DNA of 64,000 nt from Blasia pusilla (GCA_050084515.1 CM114271.1:43276001-43340000); one strand, 5' to 3'; counted from the stretch's first letter, positions 14,018 through 30,335 are shown. Notes: generated by a model from the sequence alone, not told the origin. A program made the numbers and translations.

Positions 14018-14112
14018 TTCCTTATAAAAGGGCAGCAAAAATTTTAATGTAGGCTATGGTTTGTACCATGCCTTATATATCTTTTGCTTTTAGTGTTGTA
14101 TCCCGCTACATG

Positions 14113-14881
14113 TGTCGTGCGCATACACATCGCTACACAATATACATTGATGTCAATGAACATACACACAAACACGCACGATCCCATGCTAACCCATGGC
14201 ATCCAAACAACGAGACGAGAAGTACCAAAATATCTCCAATAAATCAATGAAATCTCACATCAACATCTCACTCCAAACTCTCAATGGTATGCACTCTCTC
14301 TCATGTCAAACCAAACCCTGTCTCCTAATGAGAGGCTTGGGTTACACACACAAGACAAGGAAGACCATAGCTCCGCCACTTCATGCCAAGAGGTTCAACA
14401 AAGAGAATATGAGCTCTCAAGCTCTCTCTCTCTCTTAGAGGTATATCCCCTTCCCTCTCCCAAGCTCTCTCCTCAGTAACGAATGCTCATAGGACACCTC
14501 CTTGGCTCTTGACCTGTTGTAGCGGGTCAAGGTCCACTTTCCAAAGTGGAAATTCAACTATACTCCAAATAGAAACTGACCCAAAATAGTAAGTTTCTCT
14601 ATACGGCTCCAAATCAGCCGAAACGAAGGGGAAACCTGCTCTCTCAAGTTATCTGTGGCCTTAGCACGTCATTCTCGACCTCCAGAGGTTATCATCCAGT
14701 ATCTTTGAAGGCGCTCTACTAGATCTCGCTGATCTATCCTAAAAGTCGTGATTGTTGTCGTGCGCATACACATCGCTACACAACATACATCGTTATCAAT
14801 GAACATACACACAAACACGCACGATCCCATGCTAACCCATGGCATCCAAACAACGAGATGAGAATTAACAAAATATCAACA
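14113..14881 (-). repeat. 3' terminal repeat block of the gypsy element: Y'(14756-14881) - X(14239-14751) - Y(14113-14238)
   Basis: A ~126-bp unit tgtcgtgcgcatacac...aaaatatc occurs twice, flanking a ~510-bp unit homologous to 29209-29760. Confidence 0.92.
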
Positions 14882-15062
14882 ATTTCCCCCCTAGTTGGTG
14901 GTTAGGTCCCTCTCACTCCAGATAGCCATCTATCCCTACCTACTATGACATACATCTCTCGGACACTAAGAGCAAAAGGTTGGGTGCTCATGTGGCCCCA
15001 TCGTTAGTCGCCTTCTTGTCATTGATTTCATAGACACAAGTCGGAATCTATAATTACCTACT

Positions 15063-15206
15063 CTATGTACATCTAAGATACATCCATCATCTCTGAGGAC
15101 CCTTAATGAGAGGTGGCGTCAAACATGCCATATGCCATCCTCTCGAACACCCATCATAGACTAGCATAGTGGTTGCACCACGGGCAGAACCACACAACAT
15201 ACATCG
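15063..15206 (-). pseudogene. PHD finger at the C-terminus of the gypsy polyprotein
   Basis: RCMLCGSARGATTMLVYDGCSRGWHMACLTPPLIKGPQR*WMYLRC fits the C4HC3 PHD consensus, with two Cys->Tyr decay substitutions. Confidence 0.88.
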
Positions 15207-15399
15207 CAAGCCTGCATGAACTATTGCTAAACTTGGATCAACTATACCATCAAATTTTGGAAGGTGACATGGCGCACAGTTACGCACAAGGTCCTTCCAA
15301 ACCATACCATCGCATCCCTCCAATAAGAGAACACCTAATGGAAAAATCTTACCCACTCTCAAGATGGTGCGTCTTGCAGTCACATCCAACATCATGAGT

Positions 15400-16420
15400 G
15401 TTGTCTATTGCAAGTAGACATAGTCTCCTTGATGAAACCTCCAGATGGTAGGTCAATAACCACCTCCCCGAATAGTCGCATACCTCCACGTATCCTAATG
15501 TTCGCAATCGCTAAATTCTCAAACGCCATGAGCATCACTCTCTAAAACAACTCAGCCCTTTAAGAACATGCTCGCATCCATACATTAGGGTCATCAAGGT
15601 TCAACACCTCACCAACATCTCAAAAAATGGCCTCAAGAAAATTTGGTTCTCGACCATAAAGTAGCAAGTACGGTGAGAAAGACGCTAAGGATGTCTGCTT
15701 GCTGAATCTGAATCCCATCGCCAACCACGGCAATTGGAGGTCCCAGTCTCTTACGTGACCTCTCTGCAAGCCATACTTACGCAATCCTCTCTTCACCATC
15801 TGCACAACCCTCTCCCCTAGTCCATCCGCCTCAAGATGATCTCGCGAAGTGGTGCGGTGGTCGATCAGTGTGTGATCACACAAGGCCTAAAACTCCTCAC
15901 GGAACTCTGTGCCCTGGTCTGTCAACACCTCAGCTGGTGCACTGTAATGACTCAGCACTCAATCTAGGAAGGAATACGCTACTCCCTTACTCGCTTTGTC
16001 AAGAAATGCAACCAACTCTATCCACTTTGAGAACTACTCAACCATCACCAACACATAACAACTATGGCGCTCCGTCAAAGGTAAAGGTCCTACAAAATCC
16101 AAACTCCATCTATAACCTAAACCCATGATCCGAAGTGGATGCAATTATGGAGTCGGAGAATTGAAAGATGCTCGGATCCGATCACACACCATGCACTTGC
16201 CAAAAAAATTTGAAGGTCAGTCTGCATGCCTGCCACCAACATTGTATCCGGAGTAAGCTATACGTCCGCTTCACTCCAAAATGACCCAACTCCTCGTGGG
16301 CATGATGTACCAAATGTGCTCTCTATGAATGCTAAGGCACTACACGTACTCTATCATCCTCCCAAACTTGCAACACATATGTCCCCTCCCATCAGAACCA
16401 TCTCGCTCGCCGTAGGATCC
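15400..16420 (-). pseudogene. Gypsy DDE integrase
   Basis: HEELGHFG..CMVC (HHCC), WSLDFVGPLP, EVLTDQGTEF, ADGLGERVVQMVK, FSPYLLLYGREP. Confidence 0.92.
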
Positions 16421-16739
16421 AATCCTACGGGCTAACACCCACTGTGCTCACAACGTTGCCAGTATGTAGGTACTCCAAGACCACTCCATTTTCGTGAATA
16501 TCTCAGCCACGTGTCGTCTCCTCACCAACCTCTGGATCTAAGGACTCTCCATCAAACCTTGCCATCAAAGTCTCTGCAATTTGGCTCTCCATAGCCAACA
16601 AGCCCAAATAGGCTCACGCGTGCCATCCTGGAACCAACTCCTAATCCCCCTCTCCATGCCATCAAGCTCCAATCACATCTCGCTGACTCGGGCATGGGTT
16701 AGGGTTCAAACCATCTACGTCTTGGTTGAGCGTCCCTTG

Positions 16740-18940
16740 TCTGTGCACCACTTGGAAATCATACTCCTGCAACAATAGAGCCCACCTTGCAAGCTTCCCT
16801 GTAAGTTTTTTGGACTCCATCAACCACTTAAGTGGCTAATGATCGGTAATAATGGTAAAGAGGTTGCCGAATAGAAAACGCCTAAAATGTACGACAGCCC
16901 ACACTACAGCCAAGCACTCACCCTCATACAAGCTATACTTTGCCTCTACATCATTGTTCGAGCGACTAGTGTAAGCCACCATCATCTCTCTATCCTCATC
17001 GTCATGTTGGGTGAGCACGGCTCCAAGCCCCAACATACTCCAATCGGTATGCTGCCAGAAAGGATGCCCCCTGATCGGTCTCCTCAATATGAGCGTAGAC
17101 GTCAATCTATCCTGGAGCAACTGAAATGCTCTCTTCTCCTTATCCCCCCACTACCACTCTTGATCCACTTTGTTGAGCAAGGTGAGCGGCTTCGCAATCG
17201 AACTCAAACCCTTGACGTACGGTCGATAGAAGTTTTCCAATCCCATGAATGCACGAACTCGACTCACATCTGTAGAGCATGGAATGCGTGAAATAGCCTC
17301 TACCTTGTCTGCTGCACACCAAGGCCCCTTGGGTATATCGTATGACCCAGATACTCAATCTGGTCGTAGAAGAACTTGCACTTGCCTTGATGTAGCTTCA
17401 GCCCATGTAACTGCAATCTTCTAAACACCTCCTCTAGATGTCGCTCATGCTCTTCAACCTTGGCGCTAAAGACTACTATGTCATCAATATAACACTTGCA
17501 AAATCCAGACCTGCCGAGATCCTATCCATGACCCTCTGAAACTCAGCCAGGGCGTTCTTTAACCCAAATGGTAAGAACCACCACTAGTACAAGCAATCCT
17601 TCCCATGAGGATCAATGCCCAAAAGTACCGACTTCTGCTTGTCCTCCAATCTAATAGGCAGTTGATGGAATCCGGCTCAAAGATCTAGCAAGTAGAAGAT
17701 CTTTGCATGCCCAATAGCATCAAAGATCCCCTTAGGCATGGGCATGGCATACCTATCGGACTTCGTCTATTGATTGATAGGTTGGTAATCTCCATACATT
17801 CGCCTATCCATCCAGTTGCCATGCACATCCTTCTTGGCGGGCATCATAGTGGCAGAAGCATACTCTCCATGCGATATCTCCACTAGTCCTGCTCCAACCA
17901 AGTCGTGGGTCCTACTGTGAATCAAGGTTGCACGGAAACGAACATGTCCGTCCATGGGACAAGTCCGGACATGCCCGGATTGCACCCGGGCCCGCACTCA
18001 AGCCCGCCCCAAGCTCGCCATGTAGACCCGTGCTCACGGAGCTCGCACTTGTTGCATGGCCCGCACGGTGGGCTCCATGCGGGCAAGTGTGGGTTTCGAG
18101 CAGGGAGGTATGGGCTCAAGGTGGGCAAGCGCGGGCTATCGGATGATTGGGCGCGAGCTCCAAGCAGGCAGGCGCGGGCTCTAGATATGAGCGGGCTCTA
18201 GACATGTGCAGGTAGGTGCGGGCTCAAGGTAGGCACGTGCGGGCTAGGGCGGGCAGGTGTGAGCTCAAGGCTGATTGGGCGCGGGCTAGGGCGGGAAGTT
18301 GCAGGCTTAGAGCGGGCTAAGGCGGGCAATTTCGGGCTCAAAACGGGCAAGCGGGGTCTCAGAGTGGGCAGGTGCGGGCTCCGGCAAGCATGCGCAGGCT
18401 CAAAGCTGATTCGGCGTCGACTCTGGATGGTCAGGTGCGGGCTCCAATCGGGCAGACGCAGGGAGGGCGCGGGTAGGTGAGGGTTCCAAGCAGGGAGGCG
18501 CAGTTGAGGGCCTGCAGAATTTTGGTCCAAAATCTGGCGGGCCTTGAGCCCGCATGCGGGCTTAGGGCGGGCTTAGGGCGGGCTTAGGGCGGGCTTAGGC
18601 GGGCTTCAAGCACGTACCCAGGGCCTGCACCAAGCGCGCCCTAGGCCGGGCTGCAGGCCGCGCAACGGGTGAGGGATGTAGGTGGACTCGGGTGCGGGCC
18701 GTATGCCCTGGTGCCCAACCCCGCATGGACATGTCCGTCAATAGGACGAACATAAGTCTATGGACATGGATATGTCCGCGGACACGGACTTTGTCCGTGT
18801 GCAACCTTGCTCTGAATCACAACTCTCTCCATATCACTGTACCTGTAGGATCGTCGGAAGATCGGCGTGTCACTCGACAACTCAATGCAGATGCCTGGAC
18901 CCTTCAATGTACCCAAATCATGCATACATGCAATCTCCAT
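16740..18940 (-). pseudogene. Gypsy RT + RNase H (interrupted by a hAT MITE)
   Basis: YRYSDMER, GDYQPIN, DL*AGFHQL, PFGLKNA, CYIDDIVVFS (17471-17500), EYLGH; RNase H HTDWSMLGLGAVL, EGECLAVVWAV, ITDH. Confidence 0.93.
17923..18809. mobile_element. Non-autonomous hAT-type element (887 bp), same terminal family as 7615-7919, opposite orientation
   Basis: Perfect TIR caaggttgcac / gtgcaaccttg; 8-bp TSD ctgtgaat/ctctgaat; interrupts the gypsy RT; GC-rich interior built from gcgggct repeats. Confidence 0.92.
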
Positions 18941-19279
18941 CGTGAGTACGGTAGGACTCTCCGGCGCGGATGATGATGGTTGCTATGGGTGCAACCCCGT
19001 ATCGGACAATAGAACTCAACTGCTCCCCAGTAGCCAACTGCAAACTCTGATCTCCACGTGTAGTACCGCAAACCACGCTGGATGTTGTGGCTATCATCTC
19101 CCGGCATACCTGCAAAATATCCCAAGAAGTCCAAGGGTGTCTCTCCTGATCACCCCTAGTATGTCGATCTCCTCGGGTGTCACCCCCAACCATTGTCTCA
19201 ACCATCTCCGTAGGCATGGGGCTCACCAATGCAATAGCTTTGATGTGTCACAACCTCAAACGACGCTGCTCAGTTACTC

Positions 19280-19567
19280 CTAAACTGAAAATCCATGTCA
19301 AGCACTTTAGGTCCATCGCGTGACCTAAGACATGACATCGTGATGCCTCTCATAGTGATAGTATTATCGTCACTCCTGTGGGGAATCCCATCGCTCGCTC
19401 TCGCTCATCGGCATTGGGCTCCACCAACGGTTGTATTTGGTCATCCCAAACCAAGCCAGGCCCAACCTCCTTGAATGCATAAGGAGGAGGGAAACTCACC
19501 AATGTGGGAAAGGCTACTCGTGGCATGTCAATCCTGTTGACCACAGTCAACGACGGTCGATCATCGT
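19280..19567 (-). pseudogene. C-terminal half of a cytosine-5 DNA methyltransferase (motifs IX-X), DNMT3/DRM-like
   Basis: EPNADERERAMGFPTGVT..*EASRCHVLGHAMDL parallels DNMT3 'EMERVFGFP..YT..SRLARQRLLGRSW' and DRM 'EPDEVEMLLGFP..HT..LGNSF'. Confidence 0.85.
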
Positions 19568-20471
19568 GCCTCACTCTCGGGGATCTTACTTCCGCAGAAG
19601 AGACACATCACGTACGACAAAGTATAGGGTTTTTTAATTGGATTTAGGGGAAGACTTATAAAGAGTTGTGGAAGAACTTTAGGATATTTTTAATTTATGG
19701 CAGAAATTATTTTAAAAAATAGGGCATTGTTAATTCACTGGGTGTACATGAAAGATGTCCAAGAAAGTAAGGGGTGCCCACCATTTTTTTTTAAATGGTG
19801 GGCACAGGTGTCAACAATTTATTGGTCCACGTGTCAATCTTAGAGCTAGCCCAATAAATGACATGGATTTATTAATTAATTTTGAATTTTAAATGAATAT
19901 CTAATTTAGTATATCTAACCTAATCAGGAACGTTGGCGGGAGAGAGTGAAGCCAGTGTGGGAGAGGGAAGGAATCCAGCTTGAAGCTCGAGGAAAGGATC
20001 TCAGCTCGAGAAAAGGAATGCAACACAGCTCAGGGAAAGGAATGCAGCTCGTGAATGTTGAACGAATGTTGAACGAGGAATGCTAATCGTTTAGCATTCT
20101 CATTCTTGTTTTCTTAGCACCATCCAACCAAGCGCAAGGATTGTTTTGTGAAAAGAGTCACTTTATTTTTGTAGGTGACAGCATTTTGGTCTGGAAGACG
20201 GACGGACTCAAGGGAGGCTGGCTCTCGAGAGGATCAAGCTGCCGATGCGGATGTAGTAATTATCTTCTTTTTCTTGTCCGGGCGGGTTCTCAAGTAATAT
20301 GCATACCTCTTAGCCTGATTGTGATCGTCTACATAGGTTTCTGGAAGATAGAATGAATAGTTGCGACGACTGCCACCGAGTTTCCATCGTATTTGCATAA
20401 AACATGCAGCTGACCCAAATATCATGGGGTTGTAGGAGGCTAGGCTGAAGATTTTCTCAAGGAATAGCTTG

Positions 20472-20788
20472 CATTCAAAAACCCAATAAATTGCAGCAAA
20501 TGCCCAACAGTGATACGTTGTCGCTTGTCACTCATATATGCCGTTTGAGATACACCGACTTGTAGGAGACCATACAAGCACAAAGTTTGGTTCAACGTTC
20601 TCTAGTACTGGTATGACCTCCTGAAACCAACATTCAAAAACCAATAAATTGGAGCAAGTGCCCAACATTGATATGTTGTCGCTTGTCACTCATATATTCC
20701 GTTTGAGATACACCGACTTGAAGGAGACCATACAAGCACAAAGTTTGGTTCAACGTTCCCTAGTACTCGTATGACCTCCTGAAACCAG
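20472..20788. repeat. Tandem duplication, 2 x ~159 bp
   Basis: cattcaaaaaccaataaattg...gacctcctgaaacca occurs twice with few substitutions. Confidence 0.9.
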
Positions 20789-21448
20789 CTTGTGCTCATG
20801 GCTTGCACTCATTTGATCAACCCAGTTATCGACTTTCCTCTATAACAGTATACTTCAAAGTTTGTACGTGAGGGAACTCACCATGATAGTTAATTATTGT
20901 GAGGTCAGCAGCGGATCACCACCCATAGGACATGAAGTGATGTAGAGACTAGGATGTGCGTTGAGAGAAGAAGAACAGAAAGAGGCACTATATCAGAGCA
21001 CGGAGACACTCTCATAGAATGTCAGTGTTGTCTTTGTTTTGCCTAATGGTGATCTATATGGCTTTGGAGACCATGATGCACCTCACAATGGGACGAAAGA
21101 AATTAATCCATTGGATAGATGCTCAACTACTTGTGTCCTTGGAGATCAACATGCATCTTTGTCATATGTCACAAATGTTTATAACCACTACAAAATTCAT
21201 GAACATGGCTTGAAGTGGGATAATGTGAATAGAATTGACGAGGAAGACTTGAGTTGGGCCTCAACGAACTGCTTCAAAGAGAGTGCAAGCCTGTTTGTAT
21301 GATATGTTTGAGAGAATGGATGTTCGTCATGCCAGAAGCCTAGGGACCCAACTGTACTTGGAGGTTTTTGGTGATTACATTGATATTTTCTTCTCACGTA
21401 AGCATGACTTGAGAAGTCGTGTAGTTTTGGCATCTAAAGTGTCATGGT

Positions 21449-22141
21449 TGTCGTGCGCATACATATCGCTACACAACATACATCGCTGGTCACATCTACA
21501 CCACACAACACCGATCTTCCCCACACACGGGTCGATCCACACATGTACAAAAATCAACTCATACATATACATGGAGATCACACAACACAAATAAAGAGTA
21601 GTAAAAACAACACACCCGGCCTAAAACTCCACTCCTCAATCTACATCGACATATCGAGCCTCGTCCACCCTGTGCTATCAAGGAATCCGGACGCTAGCAC
21701 CCTAGTCCTATCTCACACACATACTAGGGAGGTGCTCCAACCGCCCAACATGAGAAAGATGGCTTAGGAAAGCCATCTTCCTCTCTTATATAGGGTTGGG
21801 AAGAGCCAAAAGGCTCTTCCCCTAAAAATAGCCCTCTCCTTGGTAACCTGCTCGCACAGGTTACCAGGGGCGGGTGACCTTGTCAACAAGTCACCCGGCT
21901 GTGAAAGACCTCAACATGAAAGTTGTCAGAAACGACGTTCCTGCCATAATGGACCTATCCTCAACCTCATCCAACACCGTGGGACAAATTTACACTCAAG
22001 ATAGTCCGCTGGCTCCTACGCCCTATCCACGATAGATCTCGGCCTATCGGCTACTCAGATGTGACATGGTTCTTTCGACTCTGGAGACTTTGGTTGAGAT
22101 ATGGTGATCATTCTGTAACAAGGAGTGTAGGATCTGTGACA
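21449..22141 (-). mobile_element. Solo LTR of a family related to the gypsy element
   Basis: tgtcgtgcgcatac...tgtgaca; shares the terminal ~37 bp with repeat Y. No TSD visible, and part of the host transposase appears deleted. Confidence 0.75.
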
Positions 22142-24055
22142 TAGAAGAACATGATATCAGTGCAAGCTTTCCATGATATCAACATGTCTTGCCATTTTCT
22201 TGTATTACTAATGTGTGTTATCCGTGACAAGTATCAATAATTGCAAGTTCCATTTCATCTCCTAGGATGTGATTGTTGTGAGATCTTCTTCAGCAAGGTA
22301 GATAATGAGTGGCCATGAACGCAACTATGATTTTGGGTCTTTGTTGGATAATGCAGTGGGATTGAATAGACTGGATGGCTTGGAATTAGGACCAGAAGGA
22401 TTAAAGATTGGCGAGTCTCATCCAAAGCAAGATCATGCGTGGGGAACTCTCCATCCGTTAGATGCACGAGAAGATGCCCCTAACCTGTTTGACTTTTCAT
22501 TGATTCAGACTAATGAGCTAGAATTTGATGCCCTTAAGGAGGGTTTGGATGAAGCAAAATCAATATTGACTAGGTTGAATATGTCTTCTAGATCTTCTAT
22601 GCCAGTAGGTCAGAGGCAATGGTGGTTGCATCCATAGGATGTGGAGGCAGAGACGTGCCCTGATTCTGCTCTTATGAATGAGGTAGTTGCATTTGATGAT
22701 TTTGAGGAATTCATAGAACACATACCAACAATAGGCCCTTGTCCACCCGAGTGTTGATGAAATAGAAGTTGAAGACCCAATACCAAAGGATTTGAATAGT
22801 CTTGATGCATGGGAAAGTGATGCACCGGCCTCTTTTGATTCTAGAATGATTGGTGAGGACTTGGCTGAAGATGCAGGTAAAGATCAATCTATAGAGACGA
22901 AAACATTTGGACATGAGCTAAGGCCTGTATTCAGTTCAATTTCGCAGAAGTGCACTGATGAAGTTCCTCTTCGAGTTGTGCCTACTGTGACCTTTGAGGG
23001 CAGAGTGCACTTCAATTCTACTTTGGTGAGTGATTGGGCGTGCAATCCTTTCATTTCTAAAGATAGGCTAACACGTATGTCACAAAAAAACATATTACAC
23101 TACAGTTAAGGTAAAAGAACCAACTATTCCAGCTTTCCTAACTTGTTATGTTGATATTGGAAGTGATATAGCTGTTTTGTTTGAATCTACCACACAAGTG
23201 TGCCCTTCTATCAAATCAAGTAAGTCAAAGAAGAGAAAACAAAAAGAGCTCCGTGAGAATAGGGTAGTCCCTACAAGTGAGTTCTGGTTAGGTTGCATTC
23301 TATTCATGAAACATAAATATGGTAGTCAATGGGATAGGTGTAGATCTCCTATTGATCTTTTGGACCAGCCTGCCCTAAAAGATGGGCAGAGAGGAAGTCT
23401 CTTTCAGATATTGTGCAATTGGTATCGACGTTGAGATAAGAGCAACACTTTGTTCACATATGATGCATGTGATGGCCAATATATTGATATTGAAATGATG
23501 ATTTCGAATGTGAGTTTGTCCATGAAGCCAAGTCTTACATCCACGATATATGAATTGGATAACTATGATTTACAAGTGGTCAATGATTATATCCGCAATG
23601 TGTCATCTTTTGCCAAGTGATGTGCATGTCATAGTGTGAAGTAATTTTTTGAGATTATGATAGGCTAGTTTTGGGAGGGGATAGGTAAGGGGGATGAGGC
23701 GTCTCAACCAATGAGCATCCTGATTATTGTGAGGTTCAATTCCTCTCCGTCATAAGTGCCAAAGTACCTATATTTGACAGTGGTGGTGCATATGGTTGAT
23801 CGTGAAGGCTGTTATCAAGTGCAACAATACAAGACCGCCACGTGAAGGTATACTTATCTTTACTTTTAAGCCCCTAAACAAATCAAGGACAAAAATTTAC
23901 TTAACAAAATATAGGGGTCATAATTTTTTAATTGGAAATTTTAAAGTAAGTAAGGGGGAGGGAAAAAATTCACTTATAAGTTAGGGGTTTCCGACCTAAA
24001 AATATTGTAGGTAATGTTGGAGTTATACATAGACTGTCCCCCCCAAGGCCTCACT

Positions 24056-24710
24056 GCCTGTGATTGACAACATGGATCCAGAATAGAATCCACCAACAAA
24101 TAGGAGGGGCGCTCCACTCTCATACGCCCTCCGTTAAACCTCATGTGGCACCAACTTGGTCCATCAAAGACGCGGGCGATGTGCTCATGAACCTACATTT
24201 TCCGCATCCAAGAACAATCCCAAGCCCATCTATGCGTGCACCAGATGTGCACTCATCCCCACGCGGGACCTCAAAGCGCCCAAAATCAGCACATTCTCCA
24301 GAATGCTGGAGAACAAGACTGATGCTCGTGTAAGTGTCGCAAAATCCACATCATCTCCCAAAACAACCTCGATCAAGAGTCCGCTAATCCACTACCCCGT
24401 CTAACACTCGACTAGCCCTGACACGCCAACCAGCAATGACCAAGTCTATGGTCCCTACCCGCTCCAAGTCATGCGTCCCCAACAATGAAATATCCCTCCG
24501 TAGGGAACTCTAGTATACCTAGATGGTAGACGTAGACAACAAGTCAGGAAATCAGAGGCATAATTGCGCCACATGATGAAGTGAATCGCGCCTCGCAACA
24601 TCATCAATCTCAACATATAGGTACTACTCCACGCGCACTCTTGCCTGCAAAACAGCATCTAAGCCACTGTTGATCCCTCCAAAGAGATCCAACACGCGAA
24701 TACCCTCCAC
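24056..24710 (-). pseudogene. N-terminal half of a cytosine-5 DNA methyltransferase (motifs I-VIII), DNMT3-like
   Basis: GIRVLDLFGGI (I), YVEID (II), RDI (III), IDLVIAGW(P)CQG (IV, 1-nt deletion), RLFWEM, LENV (VI), LDAENVGS*AHRPRL*WTKL (VIII; cf. DNMT3 IDAKEVSAAHRARYFWGNL). Confidence 0.9.
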
Positions 24711-25099
24711 TGGATGCACCACACAATCAGGGTGGTGTCCAAAGGGGTCATAGCAACAGTCATGGCTACCTTGGATTCCTCTAACCAGTCACGCTCTTGT
24801 GCAAACGCCTCACTCTAGGTCGTCTGCACGTGCTCATGAGATAAACTTTGGAGCTCCTCACTCAAGCCCCACAACGGCACCTCTCCTCCACGGAATGATG
24901 CGGCTACCATAACACTCCTCTCCCTAGAAGTGTCAAGCGCGGGGATGTCCTCTGCATGGACATGCCCCTCAATCAAATCTGAAGGCCACGTGATGGCGTT
25001 GCTGAATGCTGCTAAAGTTGCCATCTCCCCTGGCCGTCGCTCGATCACTCAACTCGTGAATCAAACGGATAATGAGCTAAGTTGCCCATCACCGGACTG

Positions 25100-27508
25100 C
25101 CATCTTGGTCTGTAGAATGATGACCCCTCCCAGTAATCCAAGGAAAACCCCATCGGATACAACACTACTCCACCAACCAAGACGTCGTAGGATTCTGCAT
25201 CGGTCACTATCGCCTTGGCTCGCACCACGGACTAATCTGTAGGATGTCTTAGGCGAATCCTTATCACAACCTCTTGTTGGGTGATAAACTGTGTGGTACT
25301 CGCTCCACCCAAGGATGTCTATATCTAGAATGAACAATGTTCCACATCGGCCCTTGTCAGGCCTAACCCTATAAATGCCACTTTCCCCAACATCAAGGGT
25401 TGCGCTCTTGAATCTAACAAGACATGCTGCAAACAAAAAAATCTAACTCTAAGACTCACCATCTGGAAGATCTCTCCCCAATTTTCCAGCAATACAACAC
25501 CAGGAGAAACCATGGCACGCTCTATCGCGGGTCTAACGAGCATCTCCGCCATCCTAGCACTCGCAACCTGCCATGAATCTAAGTTGGACGGCCCGAGCAT
25601 CAGCTCCAAGGGCATGTCCATCACCTCCTCTACAATCACCTCTGAACGTGATGCAAAAACACCATCTCCATGCTCATATAGCGTAGCGATCAACTAGAAA
25701 ATCTCGACGGGCGTCCCAACGTCAGAACATCGGAAGCAAAAAATAGCGCACCACGATATACCATCGTAGCCGCCCCCAACATCATACTCGACACATGCTT
25801 CTCCCGAGCATCAACAATAGAAGTCATCACACTCGCTTCTCCCATTTCCCTCCGTGCTTGCACACTAACACCATCAACTCTCCGAGAACTTTGATCAAGA
25901 CCCATTCATGGGGTCCTCATCGCCTCGGCCTACGTGAAAGATTGAGGAAGCTTGGTCTGTTTCCTGGCTTCCCCCTCTGTGGATCCAACTCCGCGGCGGC
26001 TCCACGTGTAACAACAACGGCTGCCTCCAATTGGACAGTTGCGGAGTTAGTCACTCCAGCCAGAATCCTCCATATCTCCGGCGGCTCCATAAGACGTCAA
26101 TGCCACGACTCCCGCATCGTGTAACCTCAATGCCCTAGCGGCAATGTACTCCTGTAGCTACTCTATCTAAGCAGCCATTCTAGTCTCACGTGCGGCCTCT
26201 CTCTCGACGCGTCTAAGTGGCGGAACTCTACCTCCTCCACAAGAAACTCCACCACCCCCTCGGGAAAATCCAACTCCTCATCCCCCAACAGAACCACCTG
26301 GTGCACGACCTCTAAGCCCACCCGGACCGGCAACTCGCTCGAGTGCCCTCTCGGGCCCTAGGTCTGGACGTAACTCAAGGTATAGGCTGAAACACGTGGG
26401 GCATGTATGACTGTACCTTTGACAATAGTCACGCTAATAACCTCTTGGTGCAACACCATCTCCTCCTCCATGTTGAGGCACGCGTCCATGAGCCTGAGGA
26501 GTGAAATTGAACTGGTCATGGGCTCCACCACATGCCCAACAAATAATCGCAGGCGGCTGCTGTTGAGCCGCATATGAAGGCGCAGGTCTTGTGGCACGGC
26601 CTCACGATCTCCTCCCTAAGCTCGTGGTGCCACAGACCTATCTCCGAATCCACGTTGTTACACTCGTGGTGCAGGAAATTGTGACTGCTCTTGCCTAGAA
26701 CCCATGGTGGATACGCTCTCTTCTGCCATGTTACGCTCAATGTTCTCCGTGGTCCTAAAAACATCTCTCAACATAGGTGAGGTGTTCATAAGAAGCACCA
26801 TCTCCCGCACCGGTGTCCGCAAGGTTTGGTCCAACATCGCATATCATGATTGGATAGCGTGGGACTTTATCACCCCCTTAGTGACATTAATCAACCGGCG
26901 CAAGCAAGTGTAAGCCTCACGCAAACTCTCACCCGGGAACCTCTGGATGTCGTGGATGCTCCGCAACTTCTCAGTCCGTACCTCCTGATAGCTTGTCCAC
27001 AACTCCGCAAAGAACTCAACCACGGGGTTGAACCTGGGACAAACCCCAATGGACAGTGCAATTGCTCCAGTGCAAGTTACCCCTCCTAAAACTTCACTGG
27101 TGAAAGAGGAAGTAGCCTCTCTTGAATCCTCCTCCTGATCAGGAACGGCTCAGTCCATGACACATAATGTGGATCATAGTAGAGTCTTCATGCCTCAATC
27201 TCCTAGGCATATCTGTGGGAGAACTCATGGTAATCGTCCATGGGTGCCCCCTCTAAATGCTGGAATATTCTGCTCCACGTTGTAAACGAGTAGAATTCTC
27301 TAGAGTTCCTAGCCCACTGTGAGTCACACCAACTCCTAAACTCTATAATAAATTCATGCAACTCTATCGTGCCTATAGCACCCGAAAACCTACGTGGTCC
27401 TCTATCACGGTCGTCCATCTCATACGCCCAACTCGTAGGACCACTCAATGTATGCGGTGATGCACTAACAAACTCCTCTACACTCTCCCCCTTCTCTAAA
27501 GACGACAC
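25100..27508 (-). pseudogene. Gypsy Gag and aspartic protease
   Basis: Gag-like PRRFSG..LHEFIIEFRSWC..HLEGAPMDDY; Cys/His knuckle-like ICWACGGAH (~26540); protease VLLDSRAQPL (D-S-G variant, ~25410). Confidence 0.75.
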
Positions 27509-29208
27509 AAAAGGAGGTTGAGGCGATCCCTCATGTAGAGAACCTCAAAACCTCGCGCCACTCCGCATGAACCCTCTAGAGCTACCCTCAGGTCCACCAC
27601 CTCGCCTCTCAAAGTCTCAAAAGGACAACATGATGACCCTCGTGTCCCTCTCACACGATCACTCTCAATCTCACGAGTAATCACTCAAACTTAACATGCG
27701 GCACTCAATCTACAGTCTCTCACTGAGATGTGTGTTGTGCGACAACAAGCGGCGTGGTGCGGCAAACTGGCTGATATATCGTCTCATGAACAGCACGTAC
27801 CCTCAACTCTGGACATCCCATATAGATCTATGTCCCCTAAACCCATACAGCATCGATGCTCTCAGCATCAGCACGAAACCCAATATCCCCAAATAACTAT
27901 CCAATACTCGGAAATCCCTAACACATGCAAGGACAAAGACCAGAATAGGTAACATGAACAAATGTCGATCGCTCGTCAGCAACTGGAAACCTCGACCCGA
28001 AATCAAACATAAAGACAAACTCCTCCAAGCAGAAGTCGTACTCCTCTGGTATTGACTATGCTCCAAAATCTCCTCGATGTGCAGTGCGGGTCAAACGATA
28101 CGGTGCGGCACTGGCGGCACGGAACGGCTACATACGGCACGTCACTCGGGAATGTGGTGCGGCACTCAACCGCATACCCTCCTCAGTCAACAAAACACAA
28201 TCTGCTCCCAAGTGATGGAGTGGCTCCGTGATCGAGACGGTACGGTGCGGCCATGAGCGACACATGGCGGCAATTGGCAATGCGTTCCGGCTACGGGCGT
28301 CACGGCACGGTACACGATCGTCGTCGAGCGGCTACCAATCACAACATAGCAAAGTGGAAAAGAAACTACGATCCCATGAATCCAAAAAAGTCACCTTGTC
28401 AAAGTCGCGAGTAAACAAGTGGCGATAACCCATACGGACTCACCAAGTATGAGATGGGCGGCCCTAGCTAGCCCTCAACGATGTTGGCGGCAAGACGTAG
28501 TTCTGAACAGCGGCGGCAGCAACTTGTGTCGGCGGAGGCAACGATAACTAACTGCAGCGACTACGAGGACGGCGGTAAGCGGCGGAGGCAAAAACTCGCA
28601 TTGGTGGCGGCGGCGGTGCAAATGGCACAGAAGGCGCGAATGGTGACGGTGATGGCAACGGTGGCAGCTGGTTTAGGGTTTGACAATTTTTACCCTAAAA
28701 TTGGCAGTTTGCAAAATTGGTCATAACTTTCTGCTCGCAACTCCAAATTGTGCATTGATTGTTGTACAGCGTGCACAGCTTCATGATCTACGATGGCATT
28801 AATATTTTTTTGATCAAAACTTCCAATAAAAATTGACGAGAACTATCATAAAGCCCTTCAATCTACTATCCTACAAGAAATTCAGCAGCGCTTCCGCGCT
28901 GATTTCTCCCAGCATAAATTTCAAACCTATAAAAATCAGAAATCAAAGAAGTTCAAGGTGCTCTTGAGAGTACTGGCATGGGGCAATCTGCCCCCATACT
29001 CAATCTCTAAAGAAACTTGGGCAGCGCTTCCGCGCGCCACTCTTCCACACAAAAAATCGGTAAAGAAACATCAAAATCAAGCGGCTCTTGCTCCAGTGAG
29101 CACTCCCATGAGCCGTTGAATGGCGAACATGGTTCCCAACATGCACCAACAGTGAGTGACTAGTGAGATCCTCTATTGAAACTCTCTCACTCCTTCATTC
29201 TCTCTATG

Positions 29209-29760
29209 TAAATCAATGAAATCTCACATCAACATCTCACACCAAGCTCTCTATGGTGTGCACTCTCGCTCATGTCAAACCAAACCCACTCTCCTAATAA
29301 GAGGCTAAGGTTACACACACAAGGCAAGGAAGACCATAGCTCCGCCGCCTCATGTCAAGATGTTCAACAAAGAGAGAATGAGCTCTCAAGCTCTCTCTCT
29401 TGGAGGTATACCCCCTTCCCTATCCCAAGTTCTCTCCTCGATAACCAATGCTCGTAGGTAGCCTCCTTGGCTCTTGACCTGGAGGTCAAGAGCCTCTATT
29501 GAACCTCCTTGGCTCTTGAACTGTTGTAGCGGGTCAAGGGCCACTTCCCAAAGTGGAGAATCAACCATACTTCAAATGGAAACTTACCCGAAATAGTAAG
29601 TTTCTTTATATGGATGCAAATGAGCCGAAACGAAGGGAAAACTTGCTCTCTCAAGTTACCCCTGGCTTCATCAAGTCATCCTTGAACTCGTGAGGTTGTC
29701 CTCTAATATCTCCAAATACGCTCTACTAGATCTCGCCGGTCTATCCTAAAAGTTGTGACA
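29209..29760 (-). repeat. 5' terminal repeat X of the gypsy element
   Basis: Homologous to 14239-14751, with an extra ~42-bp internal duplication at ~29480-29520. Not followed by unit Y or a clear PBS. Confidence 0.92.
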
Positions 29761-30335
29761 TATGGCTAATTCCGGACAGAAGCAATAGAATGTAATCAAT
29801 AGAATTGTATGATACTTTAAAGGTATAGTATCCATTGGCATAAATTATCATACGACAGAAGATTGATTGGTTACTTTGACACTAATTGGGGAGGCAACCT
29901 TGATGGCAAAAGATCAACTTCTCGATTTTTTTTCTTGTCGGATCAAAGAGCTATTTTTTGGCCAAGTAAGAAGCAAAATTCAGTTGCCTTATCAACTACA
30001 GAATCATAGTACATGGCTTAAGCAAAAGCAAGCACCAAAGCAGTTTGGTTGAGGAATTTTCTTGCTGATTTGGGACATCAACAAGATCATATTACTATGT
30101 ATTGTGACAATAAGGGTGCAATTGCATTGCTAGAGAATCGTAGATCAAGTGATAGAACAAAACATATTGACATTCGGTATCATTTTGTTAGAGAGTTGAT
30201 ACATAATGAAGTCATCGAAGTGATCTATTGTGACACTGATGACATGGTGGCAAGATATTCTTACCAAAGGATTGACTTAAGATAAGCATATTTATCACAA
30301 TAATAAACTTATTGGTTGTAGTCACTAAGTGGGAG

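Follow-up and report, generated by a model that had tools for sequence, protein, structure and literature searches.

Retrotransposons that encode a cytosine-5 DNA methyltransferase (MTase) have been described in dinoflagellates and in a single charophyte alga, by authors who leave open what gain such an enzyme brings to the element (PMC5890265). The charophyte is Klebsormidium nitens, whose KnitGypsy-Dnmt3 element combines Gypsy domains with a DIRS-type repeat structure (legend of Fig. 4c) and is treated by de Mendoza et al. 2018 as having been acquired “in the K. nitens lineage” (PMC5890265). The Symbiodinium elements SymbioDIRS-Dnmt3 and SymbioLINE-Dnmt are regarded by the same authors as independent acquisitions; in yeast, the DNMT3-like SymbioDIRS enzymes methylate CG de novo, and the SymbioLINE enzyme is inactive on DNA (PMC5890265). 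A review refers to Gypsy and DIRS elements of green algae that encode a methylase and states that transposons of this kind are absent from land plants (PMC6338049). Here, we analyze a 64,000-nucleotide stretch of the Blasia pusilla genome (CM114271.1:43276001-43340000; hereafter, the window, with positions counted from its first letter) that contains a Ty3/gypsy element of ~15.6 kb on the minus strand (14113-29760). Very probably, this element is an old copy, now dead and with a wrecked MTase domain, of a family with the layout Gag-protease (PR)-DNMT3-like MTase-stop-reverse transcriptase (RT)-RNase H (RH)-integrase (INT)-PHD finger.

The original prediction was that the motifs of a C5-MTase occur in canonical order on the minus strand between the protease and the RT. 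Three-frame translation located every one of the listed motifs in the order I, IV, VI, VIII, IX, X, that is, unpermuted, with the active-site stretch of the protease on one side and the start of the RT on the other, so that the proposed positions of both flanking domains fit (Table 1). In motif IV of the window copy, the proline codon is gone, at a frame change. The domain carries 12 in-frame stops over the four frames aligned by tblastn, at least three frame changes and a 4,480-bp insertion, and the copy is dead, as had been claimed. The Marchantia polymorpha protein P0026 (Mp_4g09160, 1278 aa) is collinear with the window copy from gag through the protease region into the MTase, also across the excised insertion, and gapless at the junction. 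In tblastn searches, P0026 residues 879-1077 align with 24707-24116 in three frames (879-972 with 24707-24426 at 59.6% identity, 954-1014 with 24468-24301, and 1015-1077 with 24304-24116), and residues 1099-1243 align with 19574-19116 (55% identity, E 8e-44). Between these blocks, 21 residues of P0026 are accounted for by a frame that is open across the junction once the 4,480 bases and one copy of the octamer gcctcact, which indeed bounds the insertion at both ends, are removed. Searches of the 64-kb window with the related proteins (tblastn) found a single copy of the family.

The relatives of this domain are numerous. A 102-residue C-terminal piece matched 78 proteins (E 7e-37 to 4e-13), many of them with PF00145, and a search with the Marchantia domain returned 61 proteins; judged from the alignments, this likeness is far beyond chance. 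The named relatives comprise 17 clusters from Marchantia polymorpha, three from Calypogeia fissa, and proteins of Sphagnum jensenii and S. fallax. Five of the six relatives that were scanned (P0026, P0077, P0074, P0062 and P0012) scored above the PF00145 cut-off of 22 bits, with 24.7-48.9 bits; the sixth, P0057, a patchy Sphagnum fallax model, did not. In Marchantia, Calypogeia and Sphagnum proteins, Gag, PR and MTase lie in one frame.

A scan of moss metagenomes with P0012 yielded 80 loci, all with the order GAG-PR-MT-RT-RH-INT-PHD as far as each of them reaches, and the MTase was found between PR and RT in 49 of the 49 loci in which an RT follows the PR. This set is biased toward carriers, given that the scan patterns were partly drawn from the MTase itself. 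The metagenome copies look Sphagnum-like, in that the last residues of their first open reading frame (ORF1) are also those of the Sphagnum jensenii protein P0003.

The family in the source species was assessed by mapping one DNA and three RNA raw-read runs to 19000-29800 at 80% likeness. The DNA depth per direction was 564-919 in the MTase bins and 546-1063 in the gag and PR bins, compared with ~0.3-3 where the insertion is unique (19722-20804). This contrast implies roughly some hundreds of copy-equivalents in the source species, with the MTase as frequent as gag. From ~1,966 million letters of reads and a depth of ~2-5 in the unique bins, the genome size can be put at a few hundred megabases, which, in combination with the tree described below, would suit a bryophyte. 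The joint 19567->24048, which represents the empty site in sibling copies, was crossed by 536 DNA reads, with the octamer fitting both sides. At three sites where the window copy changes frame (24711, 24424 and 24116), a length difference from it is seen in a fifth to a half of the DNA reads. Sibling elements lacking the domain had been named as the finding that would speak for a stray host gene fragment; the metagenome loci, the equal read depth and the empty-site reads instead show that the MTase is a constant component of the family and not a one-off capture.

The domain is of the DNMT3 type by similarity. P0026 aligned collinearly with DNMT3A (1.7e-8; residues 881-1089 on chain positions 9-199), followed by DNMT3B and 3C; the match to M.HaeIII was much weaker (1e-3), as was that to tobacco DRM (2.6e-3), which was obtained in permuted register. 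A profile made from the alignment of eight family domains and searched against the PDB gave the same picture with higher scores: DNMT3A/B/C at ~2e-18 (69 bits), collinear; DRM at 5e-10 to 9e-8, permuted, with profile positions 81-209 (motifs I-IV) on chain positions 225-350, toward the C-terminus of the DRM chains; DNMT2 at 2e-6 (~30 bits) and M.HhaI at 2.4e-6. No match of the profile to DNMT1 or CMT was found in the PDB at E<=0.01. Foldseek with a low-confidence structure model provides weak support in the same direction, in that the top matches were all DNMT3A/B/C (best E 3.8e-11, target TM score 0.52-0.56). Pfam detected no PWWP or ADD domain in the six relatives, as expected for a captured catalytic domain, and a search of the ESM Atlas with the Marchantia domain returned generic PF00145 clusters only. 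These profile scores and alignments bear out the prediction of a DNMT3-like, unpermuted enzyme that differs from DRM.

To place the lineage, we examined its distribution with the family profile, which detected 10,237 cluster representatives at E<=1e-3, 2,190 at 1e-10 and 473 at 1e-30 (clusters at 50% identity). Among the best 150 representatives, the MTase is located between RNase H and integrase in 93 (RT-RH-MT-INT-PHD or parts thereof), after the protease or before the RT in 11, and stands alone in 46; both variants of the domain order, PR-MT-RT and RH-MT-INT, include the PHD finger. Twenty clusters were looked up for organism names, and five names were found, in three clusters. The named members of the RH-MT-INT type come from chlorophytes (two proteins of Scenedesmus sp. 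PABB004 called “pol” and one of Cymbomonas tetramitiformis), and that of the PR-MT type comes from the zygnematophyte Closterium sp. NIES-68. In a quick IQ-TREE phylogeny of 59 transposon-borne domains (midpoint-rooted, no outgroup, the window copy with X at its breaks), 26 of the 27 RH-MT-INT rows group together in a single clade (100% SH-aLRT support). The window copy falls in a clade of 10 rows (99% SH-aLRT) together with Marchantia, Calypogeia and moss-like copies, and Closterium belongs to a separate PR-MT clade. With this placement and the named Marchantia, Calypogeia and Sphagnum relatives, the extension of the lineage into land plants, as originally suggested, is supported.

Whether the bryophyte elements continue the charophyte lineage is a separate matter. 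The two positions of the domain imply that the module can move, and there was no Klebsormidium-named protein among the 78, 61 and 24 matches listed or among the named members of the 20 clusters; both facts would fit an independent capture of a DNMT3-like domain by the bryophyte-type family, outside the KnitGypsy-Dnmt3 lineage. We consider this scenario unlikely. The window copy and all four metagenome loci with both flanks share the A-coding-B-A-B repeat layout with KnitGypsy-Dnmt3 (as given in the available passages of PMC5890265), a PR-MT relative exists in the charophyte Closterium, and the MTases of the two layouts are homologous (33-42% identity) and are both accompanied by INT-PHD. The case for continuity with the charophyte elements accordingly rests on the shared odd repeat layout and the Closterium relative, not on a joint tree.

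The catalytic residues are almost invariant. Among the 215 relatives that cover the domain, the motif IV Cys is kept in 212, the Glu of the ENV motif in all 215, the two arginines of the motif VIII Arg-x-Arg in 212 and 213, and the second Gly of motif I in 214. We further estimated the ratio of nonsynonymous to synonymous substitution rates (dN/dS) by the pairwise Nei-Gojobori method for the metagenome copies with a full single-frame domain. The median for the MTase was 0.58, with values below 1 in all 520 pairs (33 copies), so that the domain evolves under constraint across the family; the corresponding values were 0.39 for the RT, 0.36 for RNase H, 0.48 for the integrase and 0.75 for the protease-linker region. 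The MTase ratio drops from 0.82 at dS<0.1 to 0.54 at dS 0.2-0.4, with a similar trend for the RT, which is what decay after insertion on top of older constraint would give. By this reasoning, post-insertion decay would inflate the value of 0.58.

A dN/dS only moderately below 1 and the precedent of the inactive SymbioLINE enzyme (PMC5890265, in the passages cited) might suggest that the domain is no longer a DNA methyltransferase, having become an RNA methyltransferase, like DNMT2, or a non-catalytic binding module, like DNMT3L. This is improbable, considering that the catalytic residues are kept in 212-215 of the 215 relatives, unlike in DNMT3L, and that the profile score is 69 bits against DNMT3 compared with ~30 bits against DNMT2. 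It is more improbable still that the window copy is no transposon but the pseudogene of a domesticated host gene, as represented by the Marchantia, Sphagnum and Calypogeia proteins. They are indeed present as ordinary gene models, one of them under the name DNA (cytosine-5)-methyltransferase in UniRef, yet at least 17 Marchantia clusters come with gag, protease and RT, the copies are flanked by repeats and mostly decayed, and the source species contains hundreds of copy-equivalents along with solo repeat units. Finally, the notion that a host DNMT3 or DRM fragment was captured once by a single copy, or is located here by chance, and is unrelated to the family, to which the lone copy in the window and the failure of its own frames in Pfam might lend some color, has next to no probability given the 49 of 49 metagenome loci, the Gag-PR-MTase frames of Marchantia, Calypogeia and Sphagnum, and the even depth and empty-site reads that cross the domain in the same species; the reads and the metagenome loci already refute it.

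The position of the MTase relative to the reading frames calls for a revision of the original description, in which the enzyme was placed inside pol. Its location between PR and RT stands, but a conserved stop puts it at the C-terminus of a Gag-PR-MTase ORF1. In 33 of 43 metagenome loci, the MTase shares its frame with the RT, and 47 of the 48 metagenome copies that keep the flanking peptide (loci L001-L077) have a stop at the same codon between the two domains. The context of this stop is TAG CAA CCC in 35 of 49 copies, TAA CAA CCC in 10 and different in the remaining 4; the window copy retains a counterpart (Table 1). In the proteins from Marchantia, Calypogeia and Sphagnum jensenii, the C-terminus lies ~30-55 residues past a conserved HPW motif, which in the metagenome copies occurs shortly before the stop. 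From the position of the stop, ORF1 comprises Gag-PR-MTase and ORF2 comprises RT-RH-INT-PHD, in the same frame. One relative, P0077, is open from the MTase into the RT. UAG-CAR-YYA is the classic leaky stop context of plant viruses and, by analogy, the context found here suggests that ORF2 may be expressed by read-through.

The family is transcribed through the uninserted MTase region. In the three runs from the source species, the RNA depth was 12.7-60 with the first mate on the plus strand and 0-5.6 with the first mate on the minus strand (bins 24054-27663 and 19000-19721), a roughly 5- to 90-fold bias that covers gag, protease and MTase. Under the usual library orientation, on which the sense reading rests, these transcripts are sense RNA of the minus-strand element. 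Most of the RNA reads are less than 90% alike to the window copy, so that the transcripts come from its siblings, and the empty-site joint was crossed by 19, 13 and 23 RNA reads in the three runs. A search for the family sequence among indexed sequencing runs found no RNA run, and the DNA runs shared 0.08-0.12 of it; the RNA result thus comes from the mapping of raw reads.

Several observations weigh against the reading of the window stretch as part of a family with a functional enzyme in this layout. When the window copy was searched with stops as X, none of its 6 single frames matched PF00145 at E<=1; the stretch that scores highest in the profile (motifs IV-VI) is exactly where the window copy changes frame. 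The expected PF00145 match was recovered in intact relatives and not in the copy itself. Few near-identical transcripts were found (6 of 3339, 13 of 3462 and 1 of 3795 RNA reads at >=99% likeness), so that the window copy is probably silent. Of the 33 metagenome copies in which the MTase is complete in a single frame, only two are stop-free within it, and most copies are dead. The constraint on the MTase is weaker than that on the RT and RNase H (0.58 against 0.39 and 0.36), and the same value, which derives from decayed copies, is far above the Ka/Ks of less than 0.2 given for Klebsormidium in the available passages (PMC5890265). The AlphaFold model built from an 8-row alignment was poor (mean pLDDT 50.4). 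As for the expression of ORF2, re-initiation at a Met two codons past the stop is an alternative to read-through.

If the family is organized as described above, the enzyme would be synthesized at the C-terminal end of the Gag-PR-MTase product and, hence, in Gag-like amounts, RT-RH-INT-PHD would be produced by read-through of the conserved UAG-CAA-CCN stop, and the protease would free the enzyme. The MTase would then carry out de novo methylation of DNA, the most plausible target being the cDNA of the element itself or a fresh insertion, and the integrase PHD finger might read histone tails for targeting. Candidate benefits to the element include stealth, self-limitation and protection of the cDNA. 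A broader and distinctly tentative scenario is that of one ancient green-plant Ty3/gypsy lineage, equipped with a DNMT3-like “writer” and a PHD “reader”, that persisted through the transition to land and, with hundreds of copies, continues to be transcribed in a genome the size of a bryophyte's. Within the land-plant branch, the MTase would have moved into the Gag-protease frame, before a leaky UAG, and could be made in capsid-like amounts, packaged, and active on the cDNA before or at integration, as a self-imposed epigenetic mark.

The remaining anatomy of the window copy, with the positions of all features, is given in Table 1. As proposed, the element is of the Ty3/gypsy type, with gag, PR, RT, RNase H and INT in order on one strand according to Pfam and tblastn. 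In a Pfam scan of 14100-19600, with frames carrying stops as X, all domains from the RT to the integrase were recognized, and the PHD-finger-like domain scored just under the cut-off; the PHD finger of the intact relative P0074 (residues 1623-1667) scores 50.4 bits. Pfam detected nothing in the gag and PR stretch (24701-29800), and these regions were located by tblastn with the relatives instead. The N-terminal part of the RT is split by ~870 bp of GC-rich degenerate tandem repeats (~17930-18800) with units of 11-31 bases built on GCGGGCT (TRF rows 18174-18797).

Table 1. Features of the methyltransferase-bearing element in the window (P, related protein)
Feature	Position	Strand	Basis or remark
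MTase, N-terminal two thirds (motifs I, IV, VI, VIII)	24056-24707	minus	three frames, 10 in-frame stops
Motif I, IRVLDLFGGI	24672-24701	minus	three-frame translation of 24000-24900 and 19200-19700
YVEID	24603-24617	minus	three-frame translation
Motif IV, DLVIAGW, then ACQG	24426-24446, then 24415-24426	minus	ACQG in other frame
SRLFWEM	24352-24372	minus	three-frame translation
Motif VI, LENV	24290-24301	minus	three-frame translation
Motif VIII, AHRPRL*W	24161-24184	minus	three-frame translation
MTase, C-terminal third (target-recognition region, motifs IX and X)	19116-19567	minus	2 in-frame stops
Motif IX, ERERAMGFP	19380-19406	minus	three-frame translation
Motif X, LGHAM	19314-19328	minus	three-frame translation
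Family-conserved stop ending ORF1 (Gag-PR-MTase)	18983-18985	minus	context TAG CAA CCA
Gag region, degenerate, three frames	26371-27403	minus	tblastn of P0026 9-354
Protease region and linker	24719-25708	minus	tblastn of P0026 543-874, 40% identity; active-site stretch LLDSR at 25406-25420
RT	17303-18925	minus	RVT_1, E 7e-13 and 5e-5; tblastn of P0057, P0074; start ELSSDTPIF at 18857-18883
RNase H	16665-17306	minus	RT_RNaseH, E 2.6e-32; tblastn of P0074
Integrase H2C2 and core	15494-16502	minus	Integrase_H2C2, E 2.4e-6; rve, E 1.9e-11; tblastn of P0074 1190-1524
PHD-finger-like domain, integrase C-terminus	15081-15203	minus	PF00628, E 2e-4, 21.8 bits, under cut-off of 24
Upstream repeat a1, like a 5' long terminal repeat	29209-29760	minus	blastn; starts TGTCAC in element orientation
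Downstream repeat b1	14756-14883	minus	
Downstream repeat a2	14240-14751	minus	
Downstream repeat b2	14113-14240	minus	
Insertion specific to the window copy, 4,480 bp	19568-24047	undefined	8-bp duplication gcctcact, 19568-19575 and 24048-24055
Solo a-b unit inside the insertion, TG...CA ends	21449-22066	minus	same or close family

The terminal repeats have an unusual arrangement, with a single unit, a1, upstream and a block b1-a2-b2 downstream, that is, A-coding-B-A-B, and no b unit after a1 in the window copy. The same layout was found in the four metagenome loci mentioned above (L058, L065, L051 and L013). The units a1 and a2 are 79.8% identical over 554 columns in blastn (84-91% in ungapped blocks), and b1 and b2 are 93% identical over 128 nt, with local alignments of the a2 flanks scoring 110 over 128. 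The outer repeat ends are TG and CA, and the bases that flank this old copy show no clean match to a 5-bp duplication.

With regard to the decay of the element, most family DNA reads have G or C where the window copy has A or T at 623 places, and the reverse is seen at 349 places (19000-29800); this excess of C-to-T and G-to-A changes in the window copy is as expected for the decay of methylated DNA. The element has a CpG observed/expected ratio of 0.67-0.77, against 0.62 for the remainder of the window and 0.52 for the insertion, values that carry no clear message on self-methylation.

No protein family was found by Pfam in the six frames of the insertion; its 8-bp duplication and a weak 7-base terminal inverted likeness, judged by eye, are compatible with a non-autonomous DNA transposon. 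Nested in it is the solo a-b unit, whose first 35-50 bases are 92-94% alike to the b starts and the a2/b1 boundary (14113-14147 and 14742-14792) and which, like a1, finishes in GTGACA. The DNA depth over the bins of this region (21166-22248) is ~510-1170 per direction, and the reads include the joints 22066->21449 and 29760->21449 as well as an empty-site joint, 21444->22067, with 5 letters fitting both sides. The presence of the solo unit within the insertion implies that this family, or a close relative, was still mobile after the window copy was hit. Junctions of the b-a-b type were also seen in reads from many other copies. Elsewhere in the insertion, hundreds of reads from all three RNA runs match a stretch of ~45 bases (20983-21027), at equal depth on both strands; these reads diverge from the window on both sides (loose ends in 285-506 reads), and the segment possibly represents a short sequence in common with an abundant transcript or repeat.

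Outside the element, none of the 9 long frames elsewhere in the window was identified by Pfam as a host gene, and the sole hit was another RT fragment (RVT_1, 1170-1760 on the plus strand, E 5.6e-9), which was not matched by the probes of the methyltransferase-bearing family. The window as a whole looks transposon-rich. An Rfam search of its entire length gave no match.

In the literature, a wording that refers to “streptophytes” is used with citation of the 2018 paper (PMC12344493 from 2025 and the 2026 preprint 10.64898/2026.05.21.726589, in the passages available). In a preprint on sperm methylation in Marchantia, the host gene MpDNMT3b is given as Mp5g09290, and the available passages of that source do not mention transposon-borne copies (10.1101/2021.02.12.428880); the same holds for the passages of Yaari et al. 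2019 (PMC6453930). In the full-text literature, with figures, supplements and subscription journals outside its scope, we found no report of a methyltransferase-bearing retrotransposon from a land plant and no mention of Mp4g09160, Mp6g11220 or Mp8g17980. As far as this search reaches, elements of this kind have been described in print only from algae, and the family in the window is a land-plant member. The location of the MTase in the Gag-PR frame before a conserved UAG, the integrase PHD finger and the split repeats may be variants on the known theme. It is the existence of the lineage in land plants, and not the mechanism proposed here, that contradicts the absence stated in the available passage of the review (PMC6338049).

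The window copy itself is a fossil, and the interest lies in the family as a whole. The data suggest that retrotransposons that encode a class of enzyme used by the host to silence them are neither rare nor confined to algae, the named members spanning chlorophytes, a zygnematophyte, liverworts and mosses. Counts of “DNMT3” genes and methylome phenotypes in bryophytes may be affected by such transposon-borne copies. Marchantia polymorpha is amenable to genetics, and work on the methylation enzymes of this host is already under way. Given that full-length Gag-PR-MTase frames are annotated in this species, the question of what the enzyme does for the element can be tested in a land plant.

Among the described systems, KnitGypsy-Dnmt3 is the most similar, with Gypsy domains, an unpermuted DNMT3-like domain in the polyprotein, retained catalytic residues, purifying selection and the A-coding-B-A-B repeats; the window family differs in its occurrence in land-plant lineages and in its hundreds of copies, compared with few in K. 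nitens (PMC5890265, in the passages available). SymbioDIRS-Dnmt3 and SymbioLINE-Dnmt of Symbiodinium are likewise retrotransposon-borne C5-MTases, but are built on a tyrosine recombinase or LINE backbone and reside in a host of another kingdom (PMC5890265, same passages). The host enzymes DNMT3A/B/C of animals and plant DNMT3 are the best match in sequence and predicted fold, collinear from motif I to X with the catalytic residues in common, whereas the family domain is part of a Gag-PR polyprotein and its only PHD-type reader is far off, at the integrase C-terminus. Plant DRM1/2 are distant homologues within the same catalytic superfamily and also act de novo on transposons, but they are circularly permuted, with motifs VI-X ahead of I-V, and score much lower with the profile, unlike the unpermuted domain of the element. 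The green-algal RT-RH-MTase-INT-PHD elements have a homologous MTase (33-42% identity) and the same INT-PHD end, and differ in the location of the MTase between RNase H and integrase and in forming their own clade of 26 rows. Chromoviruses are Ty3/gypsy elements with a chromodomain, a chromatin reader, at the integrase C-terminus; the window family has a PHD finger in this place and no chromodomain. Murine leukaemia virus and tobacco mosaic virus employ a leaky stop for expression between reading frames, and the UAG followed by CAA-CCN in the window family is alike, except that here the stop comes after the protease and the MTase rather than after gag.

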